A stretch of 14,145 nt of DNA, from assembly GCA_043816965.1 (NCBI GenBank), contig JBDRHK010000032.1, forward strand, positions 1 to 14,145, read 5' to 3'. Below, piece after piece: positions 2,827 through 3,790 of the stretch. A program made the translations under genes and the position numbers. The notes beneath the pieces were generated by a model. It made no database searches. It worked only from the letters and a program-made list of their open reading frames with translations, and had not been told where the DNA came from. The DNA comes from Candidatus Iainarchaeum sp. Lineage in GTDB: Archaea > Iainarchaeota > Iainarchaeia > Iainarchaeales > JAFCCJ01. Position 1 is the stretch's first letter, and the number at the start of each line of letters is the position of its first letter.

Positions 2827-2847
2827 TACTTTCCACAGCCAATTATC

Positions 2848-2913
2848 TGCCAGATGATGATTTGTAGGTACTGATTGTGGAAAACTTGATGATACTGGTT
2901 CGAACTGATGGCA
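2848..2913 (+). ncRNA. Archaeal box C/D methylation-guide sRNA
   Basis: TGCCA(2848-52), box C ATGATGA(2854-60), 10-nt guide, D' CTGA(2871-74), loop, C' TGATGA(2887-92), 12-nt guide, box D CTGA(2905-08), TGGCA(2909-13). All four boxes match consensus, there is a 5-bp terminal stem, and the locus is intergenic with an upstream TATA. Confidence 0.9.
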
Positions 2914-2966: not shown

Positions 2967-2998
2967 TTTATATTGCGCTTGTAGTATAATATATTACA
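2967..2998 (+). promoter_or_regulatory. TATA box and palindromic operator of the PIN/UPF0175 operon
   Basis: TTTATA at 2967-2972 follows GCAAAACA. TGTAGTATA-A-TATATTACA (2980-2998) is an 8/9 inverted repeat overlapping the start codon. Confidence 0.6.
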
Positions 2999-3492
2999 TG
3001 ATTGCAGTTGATGCTTCAACTCTAATATTAACGGCAAAAACAGAGTTGCTGGATCTTTTCCTGCAATCAACCAAGCAAGCAATTATTTCAGAAGAAGTTG
3101 AAAAAGAGGCAACAAAAAAGGAATCGTTTGATGCCATTCTGATAAGGCAACGAATCAAAGAAAAGAAAATAAGCGTAAAAAAAGCAAAGGGGAAAAAGCG
3201 GGTTGAAAAATTAGCAAAGGATTTCAAAATGCATAGGGGAGAAGCGGAAACACTAGTGCTATGCCTTGAAAACAATTGCCGAGGAATAGCAACAGACGAT
3301 TACAATGCAATGAAAGCATGTACGGTACTTGAAATAAAATATATTTCAACAATGGCAATATTGATAAATTTGGTTAAAAAAAAGAAATTGAACAGGGAAG
3401 AAGCCATGGGCAAATTGGATTTATTGGTAAAATATGGGAGATACTCAAAAGAAATTATTGATGATGCCAAAAACAAGATAGGAGGCGCATGA
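2998..3492 (+). CDS. PIN-domain (VapC-like, DUF3368/COG2405-type) toxin/nuclease, 164 aa
   Basis: MIAVDASTLI, ISEEVEKE, MHRGEAETL and IATDD supply the PIN acidic residues. ATG 2998 is preferred over 2908 because the PIN domain begins there and the extension overlaps the sRNA and promoter. Confidence 0.88.
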   Translation: MIAVDASTLILTAKTELLDLFLQSTKQAIISEEVEKEATKKESFDAILIRQRIKEKKISVKKAKGKKRVEKLAKDFKMHRGEAETLVLCLENNCRGIATDDYNAMKACTVLEIKYISTMAILINLVKKKKLNREEAMGKLDLLVKYGRYSKEIIDDAKNKIGGA

Positions 3493-3493
3493 A

Positions 3494-3790
3494 ATGCAGA
3501 AAGTGCTAAGCATGAGAATTGATGAAGACGACCTGGAGTTTGTCAGACTTGAGGCCAAAGAGGGAAAAGTTGATAAGGCAAAAATAATACGCGAACTCAT
3601 AGAGAAAGGCAGGCTACAAACAGCCATAGAACAGCACAGCCAAGGGAAAATATCGATAGGAAAGGCCGCAGAAAAGGCAGGAATAACAATAAGCGAAATG
3701 ATTGACAAACTGGCAGAGCTGGGGATACAAAACCCGATGACAAAAGAGCAATATCTCCGGGGGCTCAAAAACGCGGAAGAAATACTATGA
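3494..3790 (+). CDS. UPF0175-family antitoxin (RHH-like N-terminus + HTH), 98 aa
   Basis: KVLSMRIDEDD..KAKIIRELI (RHH-like) and GKISIGKAAEKAGITISEMIDKLAELGI (UPF0175 signature); GGAGG RBS at 3481-3485. Confidence 0.88.
   Translation: MQKVLSMRIDEDDLEFVRLEAKEGKVDKAKIIRELIEKGRLQTAIEQHSQGKISIGKAAEKAGITISEMIDKLAELGIQNPMTKEQYLRGLKNAEEIL

Follow-up and report, generated by a model that had tools for sequence, protein, structure and literature searches.

An intergenic segment of 66 nt in the genome of an archaeon carries, in the expected order, the sequence boxes of a box C/D guide RNA. It raises the questions of whether it is a functional RNA gene and, if it is, which nucleotide of which RNA it would modify. 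The segment lies on the + strand at positions 2848-2913 of the stretch of DNA analysed here (hereafter the window, 14,145 nt). A first-pass annotation, made from the letters of the window without database searches, had described it as a stand-alone dual-guide box C/D RNA, probably with two targets in domain I of 23S rRNA. The analysis reported below indicates that the anatomy given in that annotation was right and that its target assignment was probably wrong. The sRNA is genuine and previously unannotated, and it is a new family within the box C/D RNA class rather than a new kind of system. Judged from patterns of complementarity, the most likely role of its conserved guide is to direct methylation at the nucleotide equivalent to E. 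coli A2598 in helix 93 of the LSU rRNA.

Anatomy and genomic setting of the sRNA gene

The gene (2848-2913, + strand) is intergenic apart from mechanically called ORFs. Its terminal boxes, box C (AUGAUGA, 2854-2860) and box D (CUGA, 2905-2908), follow the RUGAUGA/CUGA pattern of archaeal box C/D sRNAs and are joined by a terminal stem of 5 bp, in which UGCCA (2848-2852) pairs with UGGCA (2909-2913); a single G separates the 5' strand of the stem from box C. The internal boxes of such RNAs are present as box D' (CUGA, 2871-2874) and box C' (UGAUGA, 2887-2892), separated by a linker of 12 nt (2875-2886) with a GUGRAA-like core that is kept in most homologues. Between box C and box D' lies the D' guide, UUUGUAGGUA (10 nt, 2861-2870), and between box C' and box D the D guide, UACUGGUUCGAA (12 nt, 2893-2904). 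A TATA-like promoter element, TATAAATT (2820-2827, + strand), stands directly 3' of the stop codon of an upstream ORF (2521-2817). It is centred about 25 nt before the terminal stem, which is where an archaeal TATA box is expected. Every box named in the first-pass annotation, together with the terminal stem, was found on the + strand, as was the TATA box that it had assigned to the RNA. As a single strand the sRNA folded no better than its shuffled versions (z 0.52), which is usual for C/D RNAs.

The neighbouring genes upstream are small ORFs without Pfam matches; downstream there is an ORF without Pfam matches, followed by a UPF0175 gene and the gene for RNase HII. The two small adjoining ORFs just 3' of the sRNA (2998-3790, + strand), of which the second carries the UPF0175 domain, may form a toxin-antitoxin-like pair. 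A possible insertion element, consisting of an ORF that encodes an rve integrase core (680-1561, + strand), lies 1.3 kb 5' of the sRNA.

The host assembly (G000; 1,343,559 bases in 109 contigs, 42.5% G+C, estimated to be 86% complete), of which the window is contig C32, was scanned in full and on both strands for boxes C, D', C' and D at archaeal spacings. Six raw candidates at five loci were obtained, and a terminal stem was present at one of the five, 2848-2913. The same locus was the sole match when RUGAUGA was required to be followed by CUGA 40-85 nt on and by a stem of at least 5 bp; the reversed genome gave 0 matches. A looser scan returned 36 matches, most of which lay in coding-like sequence and none of which had internal boxes, against 1 in the reversed sequence; since coding DNA favours TGATGA, the reversed sequence is a poor control here. 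The assembled genome appears to contain no canonical C/D sRNA besides this one.

At gathering thresholds, Rfam gave no match over the window, in agreement with the unannotated status claimed at the outset. At relaxed thresholds, 19 of the 23 matches within 2780-2980 were to C/D-box families, all on the + strand and at about 2846-2916. All of these were far under the family cut-offs (the best scores were 22 bits against a cut-off of 65 for snoR10 and 16.2 against 41 for sR3), and their alignments covered the boxes and not the guides.

Conservation of the gene within one archaeal order

Homologues were sought in the host's order, with the same-genus genome designated G001 and the relevant families f1, f24, f4 and f32. 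When 91 nt were used as a BLAST query on 196 genomes of the order, G001 (94% over 80 nt) and numerous f24 genomes were recovered. Fourteen full-length homologues were aligned and used as the basis of a covariance model, which at E ≤ 0.01 had matches in 24 of 151 genomes. Strong matches were found in f1 (2/2, the host included), f24 (14/16), f4 (2/3) and f32 (2/2), with weak ones elsewhere; the sRNA family spans at least four families of one order.

Boxes C and D were invariant in all 14 aligned homologues. Among the 24 homologues with a D guide of 12 nt, box D' read CUGA in 21; the exceptions were G024, with CUAA, and G169 and G004, in which CUGA was absent at that place. Box C' read UGCUGA in most homologues of f24. 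The boxes and both guides were identical in the host and G001, whereas the linker differed. The D' guide was a different sequence in all remaining families. The terminal stem was paired in 90% of the cells of the 14-sequence alignment, and four of its five pairs showed changes on both sides. The covariation score was reached by none of 500 shuffles and collapsed in the slid controls.

The promoter block is likewise held in position. With the start of box C as reference, A or T occupied every one of the positions -34 to -29 in 22-23 of the 24 homologues, and 22 of the 24 had an A/T run of at least six overlapping -38 to -27. Taken together, the anatomy, conservation, covariation and promoter make it very likely that the locus is a transcribed, structured and selected RNA gene.

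Some further loci came to light during these searches. A second A/T block (AATTAT-like) was present at -14 to -8 from box C, corresponding to window 2840-2846, in 19 of the 24 homologues (L017-L094), and may serve as initiator region, leader or processing signal. Partial copies with a D guide and box D, and without a recognisable box C, were seen at L018/L078 (G115:C36:14464-14485), L099 (G128:C19:119-198) and L100 (G118:C185:726-789); the copy in G115 lies 2.5 kb from the intact gene. These copies look duplicated or decaying. In families f11 and f30 the model weakly matched a different canonical C/D sRNA, the D guide of which ends in GAUGGGCGAA (L096, G144:C1:769229-769289, and L095, G183:C123:620-681). 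A second C/D candidate in G001 (contig C82), a weaker match to the model, was rejected as a C/D RNA on finding that its boxes were not conserved in the host.

Host lineage and protein machinery

The genes of the three core proteins of archaeal box C/D particles, named in the first-pass annotation as a check, were all found in the host genome with Pfam scores above cut-off. Fibrillarin (C28:37159-37818, E 8e-79) is adjoined by Nop5 (C28:37934-38419, E 4e-44), the frame of which reaches the end of the contig before its N-terminus; L7Ae is encoded elsewhere (C71:16049-16318, E 8e-27). All 31 representatives of the order's families have fibrillarin. Among named fibrillarins the nearest to that of the host (93% identity) comes from a MAG labelled 'Candidatus Iainarchaeum archaeon', a lineage which we take to be of DPANN type, and the genomes of the order measure 0.3-1.5 Mb; the host is therefore regarded as a small-genome, DPANN-type archaeon.

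Searches of the host genome for LSU and SSU rRNA found neither, the same-genus genome G001 gave no rRNA, and RNase P RNA was not found in the host genome. Among sequencing runs, no RNA run was listed as containing the stretch, which tells neither for nor against transcription, and the best DNA run shared 0.21 of the words. Contigs of four sequencing runs, aligned with the LSU of a relative, were a mixture of many organisms in which the host rRNA was not readable. Since the host and G001 have no assembled rRNA, the rRNA of relatives was used as the target in what follows; the corresponding segments of the host rRNA presumably resemble them.

Target of the D guide

Guide positions are counted from box D, and rRNA positions follow the E. 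coli MG1655 rrlH gene. Positions 4, 5 and 7-11 of the D guide were invariant in 24/24 homologues with a guide of 12 nt. Eight genomes combine a homologue with an rRNA operon. Their own D guides, scored on their own SSU and LSU, all had the same 12-mer as best site, 5'-UGCGAGCCAGUU-3', which was identical in all 19 LSUs examined. This segment is the 5' strand of helix 93 in domain V (E. coli 2594-2605). When the host guide was scored over all alignment columns, helix 93 had the highest mean score (9.5, the next being 8.84). On the relatives' helix 93 the host guide forms nine contiguous pairs at positions 3-11 (eight Watson-Crick and one G-U), and a further pair at position 1. The fifth base 5' of box D, U2900 of the window, faces A2598, and A2602 of the peptidyl-transferase centre is four nucleotides away; the G-U pair (position 6) is directly beside this predicted methylation nucleotide. 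For the common guide variant the match is by itself not significant, as 6-75% of shuffled guides equalled it within a 5-kb operon.

The variants of the guide are more telling. At position 6, U is replaced by C in G169 and G004 (both f4) and in G070 (f32), and at position 2, A is replaced by C in G128 and G130 (both f24); both changes give Watson-Crick pairs with helix 93, and both lower the complementarity to every rival site. The guide of G130 pairs with its own LSU at 12 of 12 positions, a match equalled by 3 of 2000 shuffled guides, and that of G070 makes 11 Watson-Crick pairs out of 12, equalled by 27 of 2000. We take these variants as decisive for helix 93 as the predicted target. Weaker pairing was found where position 3 changes from G to A (G127 and G118) and where position 6 changes from U to A (G069), and the spacer of G122, at 13 nt, would shift the +5 position.

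Other RNAs were also considered. The first-pass annotation had proposed looking for complements of the guides in the 23S, 16S and tRNAs of the organism; the host's 23S and 16S are not in the assembly, and its 19 tRNAs detected by aragorn offered a best D-guide pairing of 8 bp, at generic T-loops with the +5 nucleotide at A58, which was set aside. Neither the SRP RNA nor the 5S rRNA of the host genome contained a convincing D-guide site. A scan of the whole genome for D-guide complements gave dozens of 10-bp matches in coding DNA and was uninformative. In five related genomes a perfect D-guide complement of 11 nt occurred only as the antisense of the sRNA genes themselves, and counts with one mismatch equalled the control. 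Three further LSU sites, near E. coli 99-110, 449-460 and 789-800, were rejected, since genomes that keep the guide lack complementarity there and since the variants at positions 2 and 6 speak against these sites.

As a separate observation on the same domain, the A-loop and helices 90-92 (equivalent to E. coli 2548-2590) of the relatives' LSUs (L066-L073, L104 and L105) deviate both from E. coli and from the archaea of a published alignment, with for example GGUGUUAACUGAUUAAAAC where E. coli has GGCUGUUCGCCAUUUAAAG.

The domain I sites

The two LSU segments named in the first-pass annotation do exist in bacterial 23S rRNA, and the archaeal LSUs of the relatives differ from them at both places. 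In E. coli MG1655 rrlH, AGUGAACCAGUA at 449-460 forms nine Watson-Crick pairs and one G-U pair with the D guide of the host, and UACGUACAAG at 521-530 forms eight Watson-Crick pairs and one G-U pair, with one mismatch, with the D' guide. Sixteen LSUs of relatives could be aligned over these sites. At the first site, seven of the 16, all from f24, the sRNAs of which keep the same D guide, read AGCUCACUAGUA, which is mismatched at positions 4 and 5, the latter being the +5 position. The alternative GAACUAGUA was present in three of the 16 only, namely G027 and G029 (AGUGAACUAGUA, with 10 contiguous pairs including two G-U) and G017 (AGAGAACUAGUA). The second site read YGG... and not UAC... in 16/16, and likewise YGG... 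in five archaea of the published alignment, as far as these are shown there. The domain I assignment was therefore not borne out in the relatives, and the conserved site of the D guide was helix 93 of domain V. That the D guide resembles the domain I site is simply due to the likeness of the two rRNA segments: GUGAACCAGU of E. coli domain I and GCGAGCCAGU of helix 93 in the order differ at two of ten positions.

Metagenomes were scanned for the complement of the D' guide just after CUGAAAC. At least 119 stretches were found and 80 loci were fetched, 20 of which were LSU rRNA. These 20 aligned with E. coli over 256-781 nt and with the archaeal relatives over 74-225 nt, and all 20 are therefore classed as bacterial-type. 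One of them, L157 (metagenome contig Ga0209963_1008144), carries exact 10-nt complements of both guides about 60 nt apart, which we read as a coincidence. A D' match of the quality seen in E. coli, within 150 nt of the first site, is reached by 5-6% of random 10-mers.

The D' guide

The D' guide of the host had no significant target in the rRNA operons of relatives. Partial matches recurred in 9 of 19 operons in a hairpin of variable sequence around E. coli 2200, and in 4 of 19 operons at E. coli 206-215, the latter with the highest mean column score, 7.44. The site at 206-215 was rejected after its pattern, AGTACCTACARRAAAAG, was matched in none of the 196 genomes of the order. Separately, a motif of conserved position, CUUACAAA, was noted in the 16S-23S spacer of seven of 19 relatives (among L066-L073, L104, L105 and L006); it would form eight Watson-Crick pairs and one G-U pair with the host D' guide, a score at chance level.

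In the eight genomes with a homologue and an operon, the D' guides of f24 and f32 had no recurring site on their own operons, and their top scores were at chance level. The D' guide of G070 can form nine contiguous Watson-Crick pairs with its own LSU (L104) at the equivalent of E. coli 2487-2498, presumably in helix 89. The helix 93 site follows about 107 nt further downstream. As another site scores higher for this guide, the pairing is no more than a lead. A D' spacer of 12 nt is optimal in archaea; that of the host sRNA is 10 nt.

Proposed function and alternatives

The observations are probably best explained, as far as sequence comparison carries the argument, by a box C/D sRNA of 66 nt, the D guide of which pairs with helix 93 and directs methylation of A2598. 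The sRNA would be transcribed from its own TATA-like promoter (2820-2827) and would presumably assemble with the L7Ae, Nop5 and fibrillarin encoded by the genome. The D guide (2893-2904) would then pair with the 5' strand of helix 93 in LSU domain V, and fibrillarin would methylate the 2'-OH of A2598 according to the box D +5 rule.

It is unlikely, though the strongest competitor in our estimation, that the RNA is a real C/D sRNA with a main role other than methylation of A2598. It might serve as a folding chaperone, holding helix 93 and a segment of pre-rRNA bound by the D' guide, or might act on another RNA substrate such as an intron-containing pre-tRNA, a spacer or an mRNA. Neither the G-U pair beside the +5 nucleotide nor a D' spacer of 10 nt is optimal for catalysis, and the D' guides evolve fast, with none significantly assigned in the eight genomes. 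The recurrence of partial D' matches, in the SSU-LSU spacer (7/19) and in the hairpin near 2200 (9/19), would also suit a chaperone, a function that has been proposed for archaeal dual guides (PMC4644070). Against such a role, all four boxes are canonical in the host genome and fibrillarin is retained. The 19 tRNAs, SRP RNA and 5S rRNA provided no better target, and the exact D-guide complement was absent from the five related genomes apart from the sRNA genes. More doubtful still is a function in domain I, in which, within this genus, the D guide would address 449-460 and methylate the A453 equivalent, and the D' guide would address 521-530, some 60 nt further 3', as a classical pair of neighbouring targets, instead of or besides helix 93. 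This arrangement has in its favour the complementarity in E. coli, the double match in L157 and the three relatives with GAACUAGUA, and the U at position 12 of the host guide would pair in domain I and not in helix 93. The genomes of f24 keep the D guide, yet 7/7 of their aligned LSUs read AGCUCACUAGUA; C at guide position 6 or 2 costs pairing there; the second site differs in every relative aligned and in the five archaea of the published alignment as shown; the LSU loci with the D' complement were all bacterial-type; and random 10-mers reach the D' match often enough to weaken it. A small probability is kept for this arrangement because the host rRNA sequence is missing from the assembly.

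It is very improbable that short motifs have merely come together here by chance, in a locus that is untranscribed or has no function. A chance origin would fit the unremarkable folding energy, which is ordinary in this class of RNA, and the lack of an Rfam family at threshold. It would not account for a locus that is the sole one of its kind in the genome and has homologues in four families, in which the boxes are invariant, the stem covaries and the promoter block keeps its position, nor for guides that are identical within the genus while the linker differs.

A bolder form of the preferred explanation, methylation at helix 93, can be offered tentatively and with much more doubt than confidence. 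In this form the RNA would be the only C/D guide RNA that the lineage has retained, so that a machine of three proteins serves one RNA, and the guide would both hold and methylate the strand of helix 93. The U common at guide position 6 would permit pairing with domain I as well, and the RNA could thus bridge domains I and V during folding. If true, the system would be a natural minimal C/D system in a reduced genome.

The work adds an unannotated RNA gene to the genomes of this lineage, along with a covariance model of its family, and predicts one specific ribose methylation beside the ribosome's catalytic centre, at the A2598 equivalent. A further suggestion is that archaea with small genomes and an apparently mesophilic life may retain the whole fibrillarin machinery for very few guides, and such archaea would offer a simple setting in which to probe one methylation or one contact between a guide and rRNA. 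It also illustrates that targets taken over from bacterial rRNA can be misleading for an archaeal host.

Relation to known box C/D RNAs

Literature searches by lineage and by machinery found no description of box C/D guide RNAs of the host's lineage, and the published archaeal C/D sets come mainly from cultivated, mostly thermophilic species. With the archaeal box C/D sRNAs (Pyrococcus-type sR families) the RNA shares a length of about 60-70 nt, RUGAUGA and CUGA boxes, a short stem and internal D'/C' boxes, as well as two guides of 10-12 nt, a promoter of its own, core protein genes in the genome and a guide with predicted complementarity to an LSU segment that is conserved in its relatives. 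Unlike those families, it falls under all Rfam cut-offs and has a D' spacer of 10 nt and a long D'-C' linker of 12 nt. Eukaryotic box C/D snoRNAs have the box architecture and the +5 rule in common with it, and many of the sub-threshold Rfam matches were to snoRNAs; in contrast to these, it has an archaeal gene and promoter, machinery of the L7Ae type and no host intron, and no similarity of guides was seen.

In numbers, the single canonical C/D sRNA detected in the host genome compares with 7 in Methanococcus maripaludis, a mesophilic methanogen, and 26 in Nanoarchaeum equitans, as given in Table 1 of PMC4644070. Helices 90-93 are described as a hotspot of archaeal C/D targets (PMC4644070 and PMC7994747). 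In the supplement entries compared, Sulfolobus acidocaldarius sR3 and Ignicoccus hospitalis sR411 are predicted to target 23S G2871 and G2873, respectively, in the alignment numbering of that paper (PMC4644070; the sR3 entry, 'G28713', was taken as G2871 with a footnote mark). These correspond to E. coli G2597 and G2599, which flank A2598, the comparison being one of target tables and not of guide sequences. Among the entries for seven archaea in that supplement, no sRNA for A2872 (= A2598) was found, only those for the flanking G2871 and G2873. Helix 93 itself reads GCGAGCCAGUU in the host's order, as against, for example, GCGAGACAGGU in the archaea of PMC4644070 for which the segment is displayed. 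The base of this helix (U/C2880, equivalent to E. coli C2606) is reported in the same source as the most conserved C/D target in thermophilic archaea (Dennis et al. 2015, PMC4644070). The sRNA described here differs from the pan-archaeal C2606 sRNAs in its predicted pairing, 2594-2605, which stops short of C2606 and places the +5 nucleotide at A2598, eight positions upstream; it shares with them the same domain V helix at the peptidyl-transferase centre.
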